Part shown: in pieces, positions 3,516 to 30,021 of the stretch | Numbering within the stretch: position 1 is the first letter of the stretch | Layout of the letters: each line of letters opens with the position of its first letter | Virus record (IMG/VR): IMGVR_UViG_3300009008_002419 | Location: 29,804 to 93,803 of that record | Length of the DNA: 64,000 bases | DNA from: a virus | Reading direction: 5' to 3' (one strand) | Translations under genes and position numbers: made by a program | Notes under the pieces: generated by a model | Databases searched by the model: none | Told to the model about the DNA's origin: nothing | What the model saw: the letters and a program-made list of their open reading frames with translations, nothing else

Positions 3516-3794
3516 TTATTTCTTTCCGTTCTTTGCCTTTTTAGCCTCAACCGTAGGTCCGATGACCTTATTATCAAAGTTATATAAAAGGGTGGCACCA
3601 CCACCAACTAGGAATGCCTGAATTAAGAGGTCCTGGATCTGTACGCCAGCCTCCTTACCCCAAATAGCAGCAAAGACGCCACCAAGAATAAAGGGTACTA
3701 AGGCCCACAGTCGCTGTGGTAACCATTGTTTTATATAATTTGTAATAATCGGAATAACGACTACTGCAAGAGCATAAATTGAATCAAAATCCAT
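3516..3794 (-). CDS. Small membrane protein, holin-like
   Basis: 92 aa with about three hydrophobic segments and a basic C-terminus (KKAKNGKK). Confidence 0.6.
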   Translation of the reverse strand: MDFDSIYALAVVVIPIITNYIKQWLPQRLWALVPFILGGVFAAIWGKEAGVQIQDLLIQAFLVGGGATLLYNFDNKVIGPTVEAKKAKNGKK

Positions 3795-4856: not shown

Positions 4857-5096
4857 CTAACCCCCAACGAGGGCGTTAGTTAATGTAAGATCTTCTGCTT
4901 CAATTAATTCGTCAACTGTTACATCCTGAGGATTTCTGTTGACGCCATCAATGTAAAGCCACTTATTCTGTTTGTCACACCGCTCGGTGATTTCTGCTAA
5001 TGCTTGACCAGCAGGAACTTCAATTTCATCGTGACCCGCAGTTGATACTACATTTAACTGTACTTTAGTAAATCTTTTATCTTTGTCAATTGCCAT
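4857..5096 (-). CDS. Ubiquitin-like beta-grasp protein ending in Gly-Gly
   Basis: 79 aa; strand-strand-helix-strand pattern; WLYIDG; C-terminus LTLTNALVGG-stop; adjacent to JAB and E1. Confidence 0.85.
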   Translation of the reverse strand: MAIDKDKRFTKVQLNVVSTAGHDEIEVPAGQALAEITERCDKQNKWLYIDGVNRNPQDVTVDELIEAEDLTLTNALVGG

Positions 5097-5129: not shown

Positions 5130-7394
5130 TTATTTGTTCAAGGTATTAATTTGAGTTGCAACTTTTTCATCGTTATGGAGCGCGAAGATTCGGTTAACGA
5201 TCTTATCTTTGCCAACCTGCGCAGTGGATTTATCAACGATACAAATATAGCTACCGGTATTATAATCATAGACTCCACAACGGTTTGTATGGGCATCATT
5301 GTTTTCAAGCTCTAAGAAATAGGTACCCTTTTTGCCGTCAATCTTATACCCTGTTCTCGTACTTCCACCAATCTGAGAAGTTTCAAGTTCAAGATTGAAC
5401 ATTTTAACAGTTTTGTTTAGAAGCTCTTCGCTCTTAGCGACTGCATTCTTAAAGGTTTCTGTAGCTTTTTCAATGATTCCTTTCATATCTTTGAGATCAA
5501 TGCCTTCAACAATATCTTCATTTAATAAGAGCTCAACCATATCAATTAAATTATTTTTATTTTCTATAGACAGAAAGCGATTAATAGCTTTAATAGTATA
5601 GTTGTTTTTATTAATGACGACAGTGTTTTTCCCATCTTTCTTTTCCAGCAAGAATTTAATCTTTAGTTGTTTATTCTGGAGTTCATCAAAGATGGTTGCA
5701 TCAACACCTAACTCGAGATATGAGTGTATTCGTAAAGAACACTTTTTTACTTCTTTTAAGAAGTAATCATAGTCTGTCTGATTTTGATAGCAGACAGCCC
5801 TTTCTAAACACTCTTGAACTTCACCTTTATTAATTCGGTGACCATTAATACGGTATGTAGTAACATAGTGTCCACGAGCATTTTGCTTTTCAACATGTTC
5901 AACCTTAAATTTAACAGAGCCTAATGTTCCCGCAATAGTACCATTGTGCTTGGCCATTATGTGAGAAATAAAGCCTGTCATAATATGATCAAAGTTAACA
6001 TGTTTAATATCACGAACTTCAGAAGCTCGTGTTAATAAATTTGAAAGCCACGTTTTTTCATTGCCCTCTGAAAAAGACAACTCTTCAGTTTCATATTTAA
6101 CAGAGTCGGCAGTGATTACCATGTCGTTAAATTTGATTTCGCCTTTTTGTTCGGTCAAGTTTTTAAATAGTGTCTTTGCTTTTTTCTTAAGCTTCTCACT
6201 AGCAACAGCTTCTTGCTTTTGTAGTGCCGCTTTTCTTAGCTCTCTATTTGTAATTCTATCAATAGAGTCATTATCGATTAGTACTACTTGTTCTTTTCTA
6301 CCAAGTACAAATTCATTAAGTAAGTTGGCCGAGATTGTTTTGGGATCTTCGAGTTCAATGAACATCCCCACATTGTTTGCTAACTGACCCAAAGCATTTG
6401 TACTAAATCTGTACATAAGTCTGCCTACGTCTAAATAGTCATAAAGATCAGGGTGATCTGCTTGAGTAAAAGAAGCTACTTTCCAGACCATTCCTGAAGT
6501 ATCAGCATTATCATAACGCCTTGAGTAGGGATCTGATTCAAACGAGCCCGAAACAATAGTTCGTGTATTATCAAATTCTGCGACTAAGCCAATAACAGAA
6601 TAAGTTGAGCTAGTTGCTATAATTTTAGCTACTGACGCATTCTCTACTTTTCCGCCATTAAGCTCTACTAAAGTTGTTTTACATTCAGGATGAAGTAACT
6701 CAATAAAAGTTTTATACAACTCTAAGTGTGATGTTGTTTTTTCACTTGTTGGGTATAGTTGGAATGCTTTAGTATCAAAAAAGAAATTTTTATTATCAGT
6801 TATGTATTTTTTAAGCTTATCTAATAATCCATCTGATGTATTTGCAGTTGCTTCTAAGGGCGGAACTAGATTTAGAAAAGTTAGCCCCCCACTGTAAGTT
6901 TTCCCACTTACAAAAACCTGACTAAGCGTTTTTAACTCATTTAAGAATGTTTCAGTAAATTTTTTAAAGTTAATCTTTATTAATACTGAGTTTACTTGTA
7001 CATCTTTATCGTTAGATTTCCCAATATGAAAGGTATCTAAAAATTGATTGATTGTGGGAGAATGTCCTTTAGCCCTTACATTATTTGCAAAGAAATAGTG
7101 GCCTTCACCTTCTGCAATATGTTTATCTAAAAACGTTTTATTTTCTGGAGATATACCTTCAAGAGCTACACCAAAAAAGTTGGTCGCTCCTTGATGATAT
7201 CTGTTATATAAAGGATTTATAACTAACAATAGTTTTGGTGATCTGTATAAATATACAAATCCTTGGTAGCCAAGTCGTTGGCCCGCTTTTGTAACACGCT
7301 CTTTGATTTTAGGTAATTGTTTAATGATTTCATCAGACAATCCAAAATCATAGATAGCGTTAAATGCTTCTAGGTTTTTTTCAGAGATATTCAT
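5130..7394 (-). CDS. Large hypothetical protein co-transcribed with the Ubl module (candidate E2-like C-terminus)
   Basis: 754-aa ORF with two coiled-coil stretches; C-terminal beta-meander plus helix containing GSYICIVD. Confidence 0.6.
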   Translation of the reverse strand: MNISEKNLEAFNAIYDFGLSDEIIKQLPKIKERVTKAGQRLGYQGFVYLYRSPKLLLVINPLYNRYHQGATNFFGVALEGISPENKTFLDKHIAEGEGHYFFANNVRAKGHSPTINQFLDTFHIGKSNDKDVQVNSVLIKINFKKFTETFLNELKTLSQVFVSGKTYSGGLTFLNLVPPLEATANTSDGLLDKLKKYITDNKNFFFDTKAFQLYPTSEKTTSHLELYKTFIELLHPECKTTLVELNGGKVENASVAKIIATSSTYSVIGLVAEFDNTRTIVSGSFESDPYSRRYDNADTSGMVWKVASFTQADHPDLYDYLDVGRLMYRFSTNALGQLANNVGMFIELEDPKTISANLLNEFVLGRKEQVVLIDNDSIDRITNRELRKAALQKQEAVASEKLKKKAKTLFKNLTEQKGEIKFNDMVITADSVKYETEELSFSEGNEKTWLSNLLTRASEVRDIKHVNFDHIMTGFISHIMAKHNGTIAGTLGSVKFKVEHVEKQNARGHYVTTYRINGHRINKGEVQECLERAVCYQNQTDYDYFLKEVKKCSLRIHSYLELGVDATIFDELQNKQLKIKFLLEKKDGKNTVVINKNNYTIKAINRFLSIENKNNLIDMVELLLNEDIVEGIDLKDMKGIIEKATETFKNAVAKSEELLNKTVKMFNLELETSQIGGSTRTGYKIDGKKGTYFLELENNDAHTNRCGVYDYNTGSYICIVDKSTAQVGKDKIVNRIFALHNDEKVATQINTLNK

Positions 7395-7778
7395 TTACGT
7401 TGAATCCTTTTCTTTAATAGTAGGTCGGCTTGTATTAAAGAAAGGTACGACGTTTTCAGTAAATTTATCACGCTGTGTGTTCAGACATGCTGTAACTAGA
7501 TCTTGGATTACATGCACTAATTCAGGTCCTGAATAGTCTTTCGTAACTTTTTGCGCGATTTCCAATGCACTTTCTTCGATATGATCTTGCAAATTCCAAT
7601 CACAGAATAAAGCAGGTTTAACTTTATTTGTGGTTTGCATATCTTTTTTGTTAAGTCGTGTGGTAAAGGTTGTCTTTCCACATCGCTTACACGTTGGGCG
7701 GTGGTCTTTAACTTGTGTATTCATAAAGTGCAAATAACCGCAATTAGTACATTTAATAAAACGTGTTCCAGTCTTCAT
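7395..7778 (-). CDS. Zinc-ribbon protein
   Basis: CTNC...CKRC pairs. Probable start ATG at 7778 (MKTGTRF) with AGGA upstream; the longer track ORF runs through the terminator hairpin. Confidence 0.7.
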   Translation of the reverse strand: MKTGTRFIKCTNCGYLHFMNTQVKDHRPTCKRCGKTTFTTRLNKKDMQTTNKVKPALFCDWNLQDHIEESALEIAQKVTKDYSGPELVHVIQDLVTACLNTQRDKFTENVVPFFNTSRPTIKEKDST

Positions 7779-7804
7779 TTTGTTCCTAATAAATAATATT
7801 ATTT

Positions 7805-7862
7805 TAAAATAAAATAAACCCAACACAAGCCTGAAGAGGGACACCTGTGTTGGGTTTTATTT
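7805..7862. terminator. Terminator-like hairpin downstream of the RNR gene
   Basis: 12-bp stem AAACCCAACACA (7816-7827) / TGTGTTGGGTTT (7846-7857), A/T tracts on both sides. Confidence 0.75.
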
Positions 7863-7903: not shown

Positions 7904-10900
7904 TTATTCTATTGTGCAGGTATCTCCATCACAATACTTTTCACCTTCTGCTTCTGAGCTTATATTAGTAAAATCTATTGGTTTTACCTTTTTAACTACT
8001 TCGTTATAAGCTTCTTCTGAAATTGCCTCATAGGGTGCTTGCTCATAGCCATGCTCTGCTAAAGGTAGAAATGATACACTTTTCAAACGATCTTCATATA
8101 ACTCTAAAGCGTTCTGTATATCGTTGGCTTCATTTTCTTTAAATGTAACAGTAACGCTTACTGAATTATCAGACCAGTATTGCTGGTATTTAGCGGCATT
8201 TTCTAGTTGTTCCCATATTGATACATCATATTTAGATTTTTCAAAATACTTTTCTTTAACAGGAAATTCCACCACTTTTGTTGATCTTCCCGAGTCATAG
8301 ACATCATTCTCAACTTTGTACCCTGCTTTTTCTATTGCTGGAAGTAAAGGATCATTTACAGAAAAGCGGATGCGTCTTATATAAAATTCGGCTTCAGGAT
8401 AATGAATTCCTGGGGTAGCTTGTGGCAACAAGCTCACGGAACCACTAGGTTTAACTGTAGTTGTTTTAATACTCTTAGGAATTGCTAACCAGTCAGAGAA
8501 TTTCTTATCTAATTCTTGAATATAATTATAACCGTCGTTAGCCCATTGCAACATCGTTCGTCTACCGTGTTTATTGAAAGATTGAATAATACCACTTTGG
8601 CTTAATCCAATACGTCTGTTTTTAAGCATTCTAGCGTTTGTTTCTGGCCAATGGGTGTTTACTAAGGTAACACTCTTTCCGTACAGATATGCGAGTTTCA
8701 GGGTGTGTTTAAAGTCAGCATACGTATCATGTCTATGTGGGAAGGTTTCAACTAAATTGCAAAGTTCGCGATCTTCAAGGGTCTGTTCTCCACAATTCAA
8801 GTTATTGAAATATAACCACTTACGCTTATTATTTCTAGTTTTACCTTCAAAACCACCAATAAAAAAATTATGGAATTCATCTACAGTTCCATTGTACACA
8901 ACGTCATTACCAACCAATTCGACAGAAACCACTCTGTGATTAAATGTTTCTGCTGCTTCTCTCAAAGATTTCCAGGAAGTAAATGGACTGCTCTTTCGAC
9001 TAATTTCTGCACTAACTCCAAATTTTTTACAGGCAGTCTGCCATTCACTTTTTTGTGGAATACGCTTTAGATTAAACTTTAATTCTGTAAATATTTTAAG
9101 CTGTTTTAACCTAAGCTTTTCTCGTTTTTTGTCGTATGTGACTTTCATACCTTTTTTGCGATGTTCAATATGCTGTAAATTTATATTGCTTTGTTTTATA
9201 CTACAAAATTGGCACTGACTTTGCTCTCTTCGTTTGTACTCTAATATTAATCTTTTACTGCATTTTTCACAATTTTTAATGATCTTTACGTGACCATCTA
9301 TGATCTTGCAATTATATCCTTCATTAATCCATTTTTTGTAAGTTCGTACAGTACGTGGATCTAGGTTTGACATGTCTTCAAAATTACATTTTACTGCAGC
9401 CCATTTAGATAGTCCAAGAACTCCTCCTAAATGATCATTCCGCCATTTAGAAAATTGCTCAGGCAGATTGTTGGATTTTGCATATTCTTTCCACTCGTTG
9501 TTAGAAAATCGCCTCTCAATTTTTTTAGTAAGTTTTAATGCGTGCTGTTGTAACTCTTCATTAGTAACACCTGAGTAATTAGAGTTCTTTTCCCCACTGC
9601 TATTGACAGAGTGCTTTTCTTTGTACCTTGCCCATTTCTCTTCAGACCATTCTGTTTGCGCTCGACGCATAGGATTACTATTTCCTTGCATTGCAATTCC
9701 GTGTAATTTGTCATGATCTTTTTTTGTCATAATTTCAAGATTTAAAGGTCTATTATCTTCTGTATTAAAATTCTTATGATGAACAACGCACCCTTTTTTT
9801 ATTTTAGTATTACTATAGAATTCTGCTATTAGCCTGTGTTCACAATTACTTACAACTCCAGGAGTATTTAACCAAAAATAATTTGCGTTAGGATTATTTA
9901 TTGGTGCTGCGACTTTAGTAGTAACCTTTAAACTATCTCCAACTTTAAGGTTCCTAGTTTCAATATAGTTTCCATCAGTGGTTAAGAACTTATGATTCTC
10001 TGTTACCTTAAGTGTGTTTCCATCATCCAAAGTTATTTTGTAAATAGGTTCGTTTTCTCCAGTAATTCGTGGATTACGCATAGTGCGTATGACTATTTTT
10101 CCTTTGGCATCAAAACAAAATACAGGAACATCTTTACCTTCTTCAGTCAATGTTTTAATTGATACATTACCTCTTCCATCAGCGGTATAAACTAAAGTAT
10201 CTCCCGTAATACAAGGGTTTACACCCATACAATAACTGTCATCGTTTAGTTCTCCCATACGTCCATACTTACGAGCATTTTCTAACCACACATACCCAGG
10301 CTCACCTTGTTTAATAGTGTTAGCAACACATTGAGAATAATCCATTCCTACAGTCGCTGAAACAGAGTTATTTGAAGCATATCTATTAAATAAAAGTTTT
10401 TCTTGATCATGTTTTAATTCTAAATATTCGGTATCTAATGGATCACCAAGTGCTAATGAAGCTGAACGTCGTATGTTTCCAGCAATTACACATTTTGAAA
10501 TATAAGTTTCAATATCAACAATATCACTCGAAGTTAAAAGTTCGTCTATACGTGAATTGAGTAATGTTTTGATATTTTGATGTAAATCTATTAAAGGTTG
10601 TGGACCACTTGCAGTTCCCCCAAAACCTTTAATAGGTTCTCCGAACGGTCTAATTTTTGAATAGTCAAATTTAGGTATTGACGTTCCTGTAAAATAACCA
10701 TTTAACACTAATCCTACTGACTCTACCCAACCTTCTCTGGAATCTGGAATTTCAAATACTAATCCATTCGTTTCTTTCGGCTCTTTTATTTTTAATTTAT
10801 TTGCTCCTAAGGTATCAAACCCTACACCAACTCCTAACATTAAAGCATCGGTTATAAATTCAAAAATTTCACTGCCTCGTTCATTAATCTGTTCTGTAGA

Positions 10901-11281
10901 AGCAAATGCACAATTTAGAAGTCCAGCCCCAGAACGTCCAGTTACATAATCTGTGCCCATCATCCAAAGATTTCTTCCACTTGGAAGAAATTTAAAATTC
11001 CAGATAGCATCGTACATTGCTTGGGCTGTTCGTTGTGACCTTGGATTATCCCAACGTAACCCATTTTTTGCTACATGTTCTTTTTGAATATTGAATACGC
11101 CCTCGACTACACGTTTTACTGTTTCCCAGAACTCTTCTGTGGTACCATCTTCTTTACGTCTTGCGTAAGTTCGTTTATAAACTATATAACCAAGCGGACC
11201 CCATTCAGGTTGCTTATTTTTATAGTTTTCAAGAAACTGATCAGACAGGTAAAATCGTCTATGTGTTGTCGGTTGAACCAA
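7904..11281 (-). CDS. nrdJ: Class II (adenosylcobalamin-dependent) ribonucleotide reductase, intein-containing
   Basis: VYKRTYAR, PSGRNLW, LNCAF, GNIRRSA, NP|CGEQ, LCNLVE, TTVKPSGSVS, C-terminal CDGDTC cysteine pair. Confidence 0.95.
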   Translation of the reverse strand: MVQPTTHRRFYLSDQFLENYKNKQPEWGPLGYIVYKRTYARRKEDGTTEEFWETVKRVVEGVFNIQKEHVAKNGLRWDNPRSQRTAQAMYDAIWNFKFLPSGRNLWMMGTDYVTGRSGAGLLNCAFASTEQINERGSEIFEFITDALMLGVGVGFDTLGANKLKIKEPKETNGLVFEIPDSREGWVESVGLVLNGYFTGTSIPKFDYSKIRPFGEPIKGFGGTASGPQPLIDLHQNIKTLLNSRIDELLTSSDIVDIETYISKCVIAGNIRRSASLALGDPLDTEYLELKHDQEKLLFNRYASNNSVSATVGMDYSQCVANTIKQGEPGYVWLENARKYGRMGELNDDSYCMGVNPCITGDTLVYTADGRGNVSIKTLTEEGKDVPVFCFDAKGKIVIRTMRNPRITGENEPIYKITLDDGNTLKVTENHKFLTTDGNYIETRNLKVGDSLKVTTKVAAPINNPNANYFWLNTPGVVSNCEHRLIAEFYSNTKIKKGCVVHHKNFNTEDNRPLNLEIMTKKDHDKLHGIAMQGNSNPMRRAQTEWSEEKWARYKEKHSVNSSGEKNSNYSGVTNEELQQHALKLTKKIERRFSNNEWKEYAKSNNLPEQFSKWRNDHLGGVLGLSKWAAVKCNFEDMSNLDPRTVRTYKKWINEGYNCKIIDGHVKIIKNCEKCSKRLILEYKRREQSQCQFCSIKQSNINLQHIEHRKKGMKVTYDKKREKLRLKQLKIFTELKFNLKRIPQKSEWQTACKKFGVSAEISRKSSPFTSWKSLREAAETFNHRVVSVELVGNDVVYNGTVDEFHNFFIGGFEGKTRNNKRKWLYFNNLNCGEQTLEDRELCNLVETFPHRHDTYADFKHTLKLAYLYGKSVTLVNTHWPETNARMLKNRRIGLSQSGIIQSFNKHGRRTMLQWANDGYNYIQELDKKFSDWLAIPKSIKTTTVKPSGSVSLLPQATPGIHYPEAEFYIRRIRFSVNDPLLPAIEKAGYKVENDVYDSGRSTKVVEFPVKEKYFEKSKYDVSIWEQLENAAKYQQYWSDNSVSVTVTFKENEANDIQNALELYEDRLKSVSFLPLAEHGYEQAPYEAISEEAYNEVVKKVKPIDFTNISSEAEGEKYCDGDTCTIE
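8795..10213 (-). mobile_element. Intein (473 aa) with HNH homing endonuclease, inserted at the RNR active-site cysteine
   Basis: Starts CITGDT after NP; block B VTENHKF; block F VYNGTVDEFHNF; ends FNNLN before Cys+1; internal EHRLIAE...VHHKNFNTEDNRPLNL HNH. Confidence 0.92.
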
Positions 11282-28545: not shown

Positions 28546-30021
28546 TTAAGTCCTTAGTTTCTTATCACAAACGAAATTACAAAAAACTCCACACTTTAGT
28601 TTCCCGTTTTCAAAAGAATCTGATCGATTTTCTTGAACTTGTATTTGAGTACTAAAGAAATGAGGTGCACCTAAAGGACAATTAATTTTGATTGCATTCT
28701 TAATTGTTCTTTTTAAATTTTGTGCTTTGTTGTTTATATTGTCATAAAGAATTTTATTCTTTAAAAAATGCTTTACATAAACAAGTGCATTCTCTGGATC
28801 GTCTGTATGGTTATCAATAATTTTAATTATATCTTTGTCAGTGATATTTAATTTGAAATCTTCTGGGGATATTTTTTCTAGCTGTTTATTTACTCTCTTA
28901 CGTAAAAATTCAACTTTCTCCATACTAATGTTTGCCCGCCCTGTACCATATCTATCTGCGATACGCAGATCTAATAAATTATGTATATTGTCGGGCCCAG
29001 CTTTATTAATGAGCTTTCTAACACTTAAGTCAGAGATTTTCTTTGACGCATCAAAAAGATGAAGGGATACTAAAGAACTTATTTTTTTAATAAAATCTTT
29101 TTTGAATCCCCATCTAAATAAAATACGTTCAGTGAGAAAAGCTCCTGCTTTCTCATGCCCATAAAAATGTAACTCATCATTAATATTAGTTTGGCACTGA
29201 GGTTTACCAATATCATGTAAAAGAGCGGCTGCTCTGATTATTTTACAACGCGGGTGCGACAGTTTAACAGAGTCAAGCGCATACATAATATGTTGAAAGA
29301 GATCTAGATTTTTACGTTTATTTGATTGTGGTATGCCTGTGCATAATGCGAGTTCTGGAAAAAAATCATCTAGAATTTTTGCAGAGCGTAGAATATTAAA
29401 AACTTTAGAAGGAGTTTCAATCCGTGTAAAGATTTTAAGCATTTCTCTATTGATTTGAGCAGAATGTGCTAAGACCAGTTTAAATCGGTAATCTTTTATA
29501 GCCTCATTAGTTTTTGTTTCTAATGACCAGCCCGTACCTAGTAAACCAGCTAATACAGGCGCACGTAAGATACGGACTTTTGATTCTAAGATCTTTTTAT
29601 AAGGATCTCCGATAAATTTTATTGTCTTGTTTTCTAAATCCTTTTCACCATCAAAAAAATCATACCACTGATCATTTAGTGGATCGTAGTATAATGCATT
29701 GATTGTGAAATCTCTTGACTCGGCATCCTCTTTTAGTGATGCTGTATATTCAAATTTGTAATAAGTATTTTCGAGCCAAACTCTTTTCATAGGATACAAT
29801 GTAAAGTCTGTATCCATGTATCTAATTGTAACTGAAGTAGAAAAAGGATCAATATTGATAATTTTATCCTTGAAGCTTTTCTGTAATTCAGTTAATGTGG
29901 CTTTTACAGATATGTCATAATAACGGATTGTGTCTTTTAATTTTAAATCTCTTGCTGTTCCCCCACAGATGTAAGCTGTGTATCCGTGAGATTTTAAGAA
30001 TTTGATAATACTTTTAACCAT
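28546..30021 (-). CDS. CCA-adding enzyme/poly(A) polymerase family protein with HD domain (degenerate NTase motifs)
   Basis: GGTARD, SRDFTINAL, RILRA; HD domain LLHDIGKP, FYGHE, ADR. Confidence 0.88.
   Translation of the reverse strand: MVKSIIKFLKSHGYTAYICGGTARDLKLKDTIRYYDISVKATLTELQKSFKDKIINIDPFSTSVTIRYMDTDFTLYPMKRVWLENTYYKFEYTASLKEDAESRDFTINALYYDPLNDQWYDFFDGEKDLENKTIKFIGDPYKKILESKVRILRAPVLAGLLGTGWSLETKTNEAIKDYRFKLVLAHSAQINREMLKIFTRIETPSKVFNILRSAKILDDFFPELALCTGIPQSNKRKNLDLFQHIMYALDSVKLSHPRCKIIRAAALLHDIGKPQCQTNINDELHFYGHEKAGAFLTERILFRWGFKKDFIKKISSLVSLHLFDASKKISDLSVRKLINKAGPDNIHNLLDLRIADRYGTGRANISMEKVEFLRKRVNKQLEKISPEDFKLNITDKDIIKIIDNHTDDPENALVYVKHFLKNKILYDNINNKAQNLKRTIKNAIKINCPLGAPHFFSTQIQVQENRSDSFENGKLKCGVFCNFVCDKKLRT

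Follow-up and report, generated by a model that had tools for sequence, protein, structure and literature searches.

Does a phage that encodes its own ubiquitin-like protein (Ubl), JAB/JAMM metalloprotease and ThiF-type E1 enzyme also encode an E2-like carrier? This question is raised by a 64,000-nucleotide (nt) stretch of virus DNA (IMG/VR record IMGVR_UViG_3300009008_002419, positions 29,804 to 93,803; the whole stretch is referred to below as the window), in which the genes for these three proteins follow that of a 754-amino-acid (aa) protein, P0001. With 93.8 kb at a CheckV completeness of 31%, the record derives from a large phage, which is marine and uncultured. A prediction made from the letters of the window alone (hereafter, the original prediction) had put forward the C-terminal tail of P0001 as a candidate for the E2 missing from the cassette, with its N-terminal domains as the part that selects targets, and had named a substrate role for P0001 as the alternative. 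The analysis reported here partly supports this interpretation: judging from structure models, sequence conservation and gene partnership, the best reading, with about even chances, is that P0001 is an E2-like thioester carrier fused to target-selecting regions, which would make it the fourth dedicated component of the cassette.

In bacteria, the known links of ubiquitin-like conjugation have so far been to antiphage defence (Cap2/Cap3 of the cyclic-oligonucleotide-based antiphage signaling system, CBASS; Bil; Bub), whereas here the virus side carries the complete kit, which is maintained in scores of large phages that are uncultured and is missing from cultured phages. No recognizable E2 was found among the cassette genes scanned, and the UQ_con, Prok-E2_A and Prok-E2_B families were not detected in the 93.8-kb record, itself only about 31% of the phage.

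Conservation of the cassette in viral genomes

The P0001 gene ends 33 nt from the start of the Ubl gene, as originally stated (stop codon at 5130-5132; start of the Ubl open reading frame, ORF, at 5096). Starting from the large protein, 36 viral loci were collected, with an E1 gene downstream in 35 of these; the contig of the remaining locus ends first. JAB was detected in 32 and Ubl in 27 of the 36 loci in the first search, and most of the divergent loci in which this search had missed the Ubl carry a Ubl gene with the Gly-Gly (GG) motif upstream of the large gene. In this divergent clade, the order is Ubl, large protein, an optional exonuclease-like gene, JAB and E1; stop codons overlap with start codons, and the cassette is flanked by genes other than those in the window. 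Starting from the E1, 72 viral loci were collected, where all E1 proteins of the subfamily are encoded within 3.5 kb of the large protein, with the exception of one truncated contig and one divergent E1; the more distant ThiF proteins have none of the cassette partners. JAB is missing in a few phages, so that the constant core consists of Ubl, the large protein and E1. These three occur together in essentially every informative viral locus, despite changes of gene order, and phage homologs of P0001 were never found apart from Ubl and E1 where the contig reaches far enough. The co-occurrence anticipated in the original prediction thus holds for Ubl and E1.

The partners show the features of an activation and trimming set. 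The GG end of the Ubl is invariant in 23 orthologs, with phage Ubls ending in LTxALVGG, and some Ubl genes run past the GG by 1-9 residues, a tandem second Ubl or an extra domain. One such gene (L073:3703-4326) encodes a tandem di-Ubl with GG after each copy, and three others (L067:5753-6460, L075:3820-4305 and L076:3659-4390) encode Ubl-GG followed by an extra domain of 90-160 aa. These precursors recall polyubiquitin and ubiquitin-fusion genes, and the residues after the GG imply a trimming or maturation job for the JAB protein. The latter matches the desampylase model (5.2e-19, below the model cut-off), and its residues E...HTHP...S..D are visible in the sequence. The E1 matches the PRTRC ThiF model (2.3e-15, likewise below the model cut-off) and has a single invariant cysteine, Cys161 (GSCQ). 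It is very short (about 200 aa), with an NLxYQ or NLLHQ motif in which the arginine is replaced throughout the subfamily; the corresponding motif of ThiF/MoeB is NLxRQ.

The P0001 family

An exhaustive HMMER search with P0001 retrieved 342 cluster representatives at E<=1e-3, mostly of 620-780 aa, the majority of which align from about residue 250-320 to the C-terminal end. Searches of Pfam, PHROGs, PADLOC, NCBIfam, PDB sequences and GenBank phages with the whole P0001 sequence yielded nothing significant; a Pfam match to ENCP4 was set aside as chance-level (E 0.0095). Because no relative was found in one genome each of 185,579 prokaryote species, the family, known only from uncultured viruses, looks virus-only. 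The longer matches, on contigs of up to 215 kb, contain no Pfam domain, and no fusion to E1, JAB or Ubl was found among the 114 longer matches or the longest family members. The tail was not found as a separate protein either: the short database matches, probably fragments, all come from contigs no longer than 3 kb.

Within this family, Cys718, Tyr692 and Asp742 are invariant in 146 database relatives at 20-62% identity. Cys718, the cysteine of YICIVD that the original prediction had singled out, is present in 54 of 54 distinct proteins from the viral loci, including those of a clade in which tail identity is no more than about 25-30%. The other cysteine of the tail considered there, in CGVYD (Cys706), is not conserved. 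The central region contains a second group of near-invariant residues (N517, N522, E525, C535, S553, H557 and G563), with C535 and S553 each found in 54/54 and H557 in 53/54 of the viral proteins (codons of C535 and H557 at 5790-5792 and 5724-5726, respectively). This polar set could form another active or metal site.

Predicted fold of the C-terminal tail

Full-length P0001 was modeled with AlphaFold2 from a 106-sequence alignment (predicted local distance difference test score, pLDDT, 86.2; predicted template modeling score, pTM, 0.74). In the model, a variable alpha/beta part at the N-terminus is followed by a long helix, a conserved alpha/beta region in the center, a second long helix and the tail (boundaries in Table 1). 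In the tail, strands at residues 670-675, 678-686 (with GYKID), 691-695 (TYFLE) and 708-710 (VYD) are followed by a short bridge at 716-719 (YICI), a helix at 730-740 (DKIVNRIFALH) and a short helix at 742-745. The tail folded alone (residues 648-754) gave a pLDDT of 80.7. The four-strand meander followed by a helix that had been read from the sequence is therefore essentially right, except that an extra strand precedes GYKID and that YICIVD, formerly counted as the last strand, is the cysteine segment after the meander. The order of elements in the tail models, helix, four-strand antiparallel meander, long loop with Cys718, helix, is that of the ubiquitin-conjugating (UBC) fold, and, judged from the secondary structure, Cys718 lies 8 residues past strand 4 and 12 ahead of helix 2.

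In an exhaustive VIA-align search with the full-length model, residues 655-754 were placed on UEV, E2 and RWD structures. With the isolated tail, UBC, UEV and RWD folds took at least 35 of the top 50 places. The matches include the VPS37A UEV (Z 5.0 over 89 aa, 4.3 A), the Vps23 UEV (4.8), the BubB E2 (4.5), the Cap2 E2 domain (4.4), FANCL (4.2), Tsg101 (4.1) and Ubc9 (4.0), and, further, Ube2W, UBE2O, UbcH5c, UFC1, E2S, a CBASS E2 and many RWD domains. Another structural search of the tail agrees with this placement. The models thus weakly indicate a fold of the UBC/UEV/RWD type, the topology expected by the original prediction, and the argument lies in the one-sidedness of the match list rather than in any single match.

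Other comparisons were less informative. A search of BFVD structures returned only three viral proteins, all unnamed, the ESM Atlas entry added nothing, its model being poor, and a PDB profile search with the tail alignment found no E2. Outside the tail, residues 207-346 show weak fold matches to DcrB/SciW/Mog1-like and OB-like folds (Z<=4.8), and no fold match was obtained for the central region.

Homology to the bacterial DUF7737 domain

In Pfam scans of single tails, 15 of 26 phage tails matched DUF7737 (PF24879) below threshold, over the stretch with the cysteine motif. The best of these reached 22.8 bits (E 9.5e-5) against a gathering score of 27 bits; the tail of P0001 itself had no DUF7737 match. 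True DUF7737 proteins were taken from about 800 sampled bacterial genomes of three phyla, and hhalign aligned the phage tails with 15 bacterial DUF7737 domains over 86 columns (96.3%, E 1.5e-9; 64%, E 6.5e-5 for the full-length phage and bacterial alignments). Cys718 aligns with the cysteine of the bacterial YLCIVP motif, and NRIxALxND with SKxxLLAxD. By these profile comparisons, the phage tail is homologous to DUF7737, and the likeness to the YLCIV...LLA.D C-termini of DUF4132 proteins that the original prediction had noted is borne out. By fold, the tail groups with the UBC/UEV/RWD superfamily; by sequence, it is a divergent DUF7737.

Bacterial DUF7737 is the extreme C-terminal domain of DUF4132 proteins, of about 860 aa or, with DUF5724, about 1700 aa, and the phage tail likewise ends a large protein; in bacteria, too, a small protein ending in LVGG (LKGG in one case) is encoded next door, the phage Ubl ending in LVGG. 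There are differences as well: DUF4132 and DUF5724 are undetectable in the phage protein (single scans of P0001 and of 67 relatives gave no DUF4132 signal), the phage tail is without the bacterial HLGS, FLPF..D and SK motifs, and the dedicated E1 and JAB of the phages are mostly absent in the sampled bacteria.

Among the bacterial loci, the cysteine and the end of the small protein vary together. All seven DUF7737 proteins that bear the cysteine have directly upstream a protein of about 130 aa that ends in KLTxLVGG, or LKGG in one locus, whereas in all five loci with a Cys-less DUF7737 that could be examined, a clearly related small protein ends in LAGRxW, LAGSYW or LSGW (Table 1). A free Gly-Gly end thus accompanies the cysteine. 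Homology between the phage Ubl and the bacterial GG-ended small proteins was not shown (hhalign, 3%). A 15-column match of bacterial DUF7737 to Prok-E2_B, centered on both cysteines (NDQYLCIVP and DGVLCLVP), is suggestive but not significant (1.4%). In one Bacteroidota locus, a canonical ThiF-family gene (L121:5055-5771, Pfam E 1e-64) overlaps the stop codon of the DUF4132-DUF7737 gene, with an IS66 transposase nearby; this ThiF gene is absent from the other eight bacterial loci. We found no paper that names DUF7737; DUF4132 genes are mentioned in the literature only as unknowns, one of these being induced in the Deinococcus radiation response.

A putative E2-like relay and its alternatives

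If P0001 is an E2-like carrier, the cassette could operate as follows. The E1 would adenylate the terminal Gly-Gly of the Ubl and probably take the Ubl onto its own Cys161. From there, the Ubl would pass to Cys718, which is located in the loop between strand 4 and the helix, the place of the catalytic cysteine in E2 enzymes. The central region (Cys535, Ser553 and His557) and the variable N-terminal region may select the target or assist in the transfer, in which case P0001 would be an E2/E3 hybrid. JAB would trim the Ubl precursors and may also remove the tag.

Several known proteins offer partial parallels for such a relay. Prokaryotic E2-like proteins, namely, Cap2 of type II CBASS, which is an E2-E1 fusion (PDB 7to3), and BubB of the Bub operons (PDB 9eav, PMC11601596), come from operons of the same kind, with a Ubl or Ubl-like substrate, E1 and JAB. 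Their E2 folds are among the best structural matches of the phage tail (Z 4.4-4.5, about 85-95 residues, root-mean-square deviation 3.6-4.6 A), and they share with it a conserved (in the phage, candidate) nucleophile after strand 4. Several bacterial E2-like families lack the classical HPN histidine, as does the phage tail (Iyer, Burroughs and Aravind 2006, PMC1779556). The phage tail differs from the prokaryotic E2s in being shorter, without the C-terminal helices alpha3/alpha4, and in having no sequence-profile similarity to them; in contrast to Cap2, the phage domain is joined at its N-terminal side to a region of about 650 aa and not to the E1, and unlike Cap2 and BubB, it is encoded by a phage and not in a defence island. 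For the overall design, UBE2O and BIRC6 provide a functional analogy only: these are E2/E3 hybrids with a UBC-type domain in a large protein, other parts of which bind substrates. The UBE2O UBC domain is among the structural matches (Z 2.9-3.5), but there is no sequence relation, and the phage domain is much reduced and located at the extreme C-terminus.

A number of observations weigh against a catalytic role of the tail. Structurally, all matches have Z of 5.0 or less with deviations near 4 A, under the level at which the tool advises trust, and Foldseek found no matches in the PDB for the full model or the tail. The stretch from strand 4 to Cys718 contains no HPN motif, and the protein ends 14 residues after helix 2, without alpha3/alpha4, so that the tail is as RWD/UEV-like as it is UBC-like; kinetochore proteins with a coiled coil or helix followed by an RWD domain also match the long helix together with the tail. 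The residues around Cys718 (YICIV) are hydrophobic, and the cysteine could be buried. At the sequence level, the tail has no match to E2 families in Pfam at E<=0.01 or in PADLOC at E<=1, and its hhalign comparison with seven Cap2-type Prok-E2_B domains gave 0.3%. In bacteria, the cysteine position is occupied by His, Ser, Phe or Pro in 8 of the 15 sampled proteins, these eight being of about 1100-1700 aa, and a ThiF gene is adjacent in only one of nine loci, so that the domain need not originally have been an E2 catalyst; the covariation of the cysteine with the GG end comes from few independent lineages and is a pointer, not proof. Furthermore, archaeal SAMP-type (small archaeal modifier protein) systems are thought to work without an E2, and one is not strictly required.

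In the reading of the tail as the missing E2, the topology, the invariant cysteine and the fixed partnership with Ubl and E1 stood, whereas resemblance to an E2 at the level of profiles and motifs did not emerge. Because the comparisons with Prok-E2_B, the family covered by profile-to-profile comparison among UQ_con and Prok-E2_A to E, gave 0.3% for the phage tail and 1.4% for bacterial DUF7737, P0001 should not be filed in any described E2 family and is not a classical E2.

The same observations could mean, with lower probability, that P0001 is a non-catalytic partner, with a binding or dimerization module of the UEV/RWD type that holds the Ubl or the E1. It would then be an adaptor, a scaffold or the main substrate, tagged directly by the E1 as proposed for the E2-less SAMP-type systems. 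The RWD-like size of the tail, with neither HPN nor alpha3/alpha4, fits this role, and UEV and RWD domains (Tsg101/Vps23, VPS37A, GCN2, kinetochore RWDs) are the best or equal-best matches at similar size (Z 3.6-5.0), the kinetochore RWDs also sharing the long helix that leads into the domain. Moreover, bacterial DUF7737 often occurs without the cysteine and a neighboring E1, and the phage JAB and E1 score best or well, below cut-offs, against models from SAMP systems. UEV and RWD domains are non-catalytic and are not known to have a conserved cysteine at the E2 active-site position. A position free of a nucleophile would accordingly be expected in the phage tail; instead, Cys718 is invariant across a clade as divergent as the bacterial family that varies at this site, the cysteine occurs with a partner protein whose GG end is free, and the neighboring genes make up a full activation and trimming set. 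It also counts against a non-catalytic partner that the tail has no universally conserved lysine, K722 being replaced by Asp in the divergent clade.

It is improbable that the cassette is instead a sulfur-carrier pathway, in which the Ubl would be a thiocarboxylate carrier of the ThiS/MoaD type and P0001, via Cys718 and/or Cys535, would thio-modify a nucleotide, a cofactor or a DNA or RNA base in replication, with JAB only maturing the carrier, as in CysO-Mec+. A Ubl ending in GG, a ThiF-type E1 and JAB are the layout of known sulfur-transfer operons (PMC1779556), the phage E1 matches ThiF/MoeB models, and the cassette is always found among replication and nucleotide genes (ribonucleotide reductase, PolA, exonuclease, uracil-DNA glycosylase-PolA). 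However, neither the protein nor its neighbors showed a rhodanese, PP-loop, radical-SAM or other sulfur-transfer domain, precursors with a tandem second Ubl or an added domain are more usual for protein tags, and the fold of the tail is UBC-like. That P0001 has an unrelated function in the replication module and is a neighbor by inheritance is very improbable: the closer phages are indeed syntenic over the whole region from ribonucleotide reductase through the sigma factor to PolA, but the divergent clade reorders the genes and swaps the flanks while keeping the set together, and bacterial DUF7737 proteins also keep a GG-ended partner.

Returning to P0001 as an E2-like carrier, a speculative extension, which we put forward with limited confidence, is that DUF7737 is an unrecognized family of E2-like thioester carriers for small proteins with a Gly-Gly end. 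It would operate in large phages with their own E1 and JAB and in the bacterial DUF4132 giants, including DNA-damage-induced genes such as Deinococcus DRA0166, and the phage protein, as an E2/E3 hybrid, may use both of its invariant cysteines, Cys718 and Cys535, to relay the tag to targets of the host or the phage during replication. Should Cys718 indeed be a carrier site, the E2-like families would gain a member that sequence methods had not linked to them, DUF7737, a widespread bacterial domain on DUF4132 proteins, would obtain its first testable function, and one could ask what the phage tags in infection, be it host defence proteins, the replication machinery or its own proteins.

Features of the locus and genomic context

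Table 1. Features of the P0001 cassette in the window (first ten rows below the header) and small genes of the bacterial DUF7737 loci
Feature	Position	Strand	Basis
754-aa cassette protein P0001, whole gene	5130..7394	(-)	ORF list and translation; ATG start
N-terminal region, aa 1-373, poorly conserved; candidate target-binding part	6276..7394	(-)	relatives mostly align from aa ~250-320
Long helix, aa 375-414	6153..6272	(-)	AlphaFold2 secondary structure
Conserved central alpha/beta region, aa ~420-625	5520..6137	(-)	family alignments
Long helix, aa 634-665, leading to the C-terminal domain	5400..5495	(-)	AlphaFold2 secondary structure; kinetochore helix-plus-RWD matches
C-terminal UBC/RWD-like, DUF7737-related domain, aa 655-754 (alpha1, four-strand meander, Cys loop, alpha2)	5133..5432	(-)	AlphaFold2, VIA-align, hhalign
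Cys718 codon, candidate thioester site, between strand 4 and helix 2	5241..5243	(-)	invariance; alignment with DUF7737 YLCIVP
Ubl, 79 aa, ends in NALVGG at the stop codon	4857..5096	(-)	translation
JAB/JAMM metalloprotease, 151 aa	4412..4867	(-)	Prok-JAB 3.8e-14
Short ThiF-type E1, 204 aa	3808..4422	(-)	ThiF 2.2e-14
GG-ended small genes of bacterial loci with Cys-bearing DUF7737	L120:9617-10042, L137:12328-12723, L123:7178-7570, L122:7449-7841, L136:6307-6798, L121:2220-2477, L138:6011-6385		
Small genes of bacterial loci with Cys-less DUF7737	L124:15545-15979, L146-L149		

Downstream of P0001, the order on the same strand is Ubl, JAB, E1, a holin-like gene, a sigma-70-type factor and a family A DNA polymerase. 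The holin-like gene (92 aa, window 3516-3794; PHROG 1299, E 3e-7) separates the E1 from the sigma factor, in surroundings that otherwise are a replication and transcription module. Upstream, the genes encode a zinc-ribbon-like protein of 149 aa and a class II ribonucleotide reductase, the latter interrupted by an intein that contains an HNH endonuclease. The former (window 7395-7844), which contains two CxxC pairs, abuts the start of the P0001 gene exactly; it is present only in the four closest viral loci (L008-L011) and is thus outside the conserved cassette. The ribonucleotide reductase gene (window 7904-11281) contains the Pfam domains Intein_splicing and HNH_3 inside the reductase domains; in most related phages, this gene is unbroken, encoding about 650-680 aa, and one cluster of phages (L003-L005) has a longer ORF of about 990 aa in its place. 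Promoter and terminator scans gave a signal no better than in shuffled sequence.

Variants of the cassette were observed as well. L072 encodes a related short E1 (L072:6998-7555, profile E 4e-36) with no large protein or JAB nearby and with only a weak Ubl-like match, 5.6 kb from the E1; this may be a different arrangement of the system. In the divergent clade, inserted genes of about 220 aa were considered as E2 candidates and rejected, as two of the three match 3'-5' exonuclease families; the third has no Pfam match. The 3'-5' exonuclease-like gene is located between the large protein and JAB in some of these phages (L028:11142-11834; L029:10974-11615), and the cassette of this clade adjoins a 900-aa protein with uracil-DNA-glycosylase-like and PolA-like domains (L027:4029-6737).

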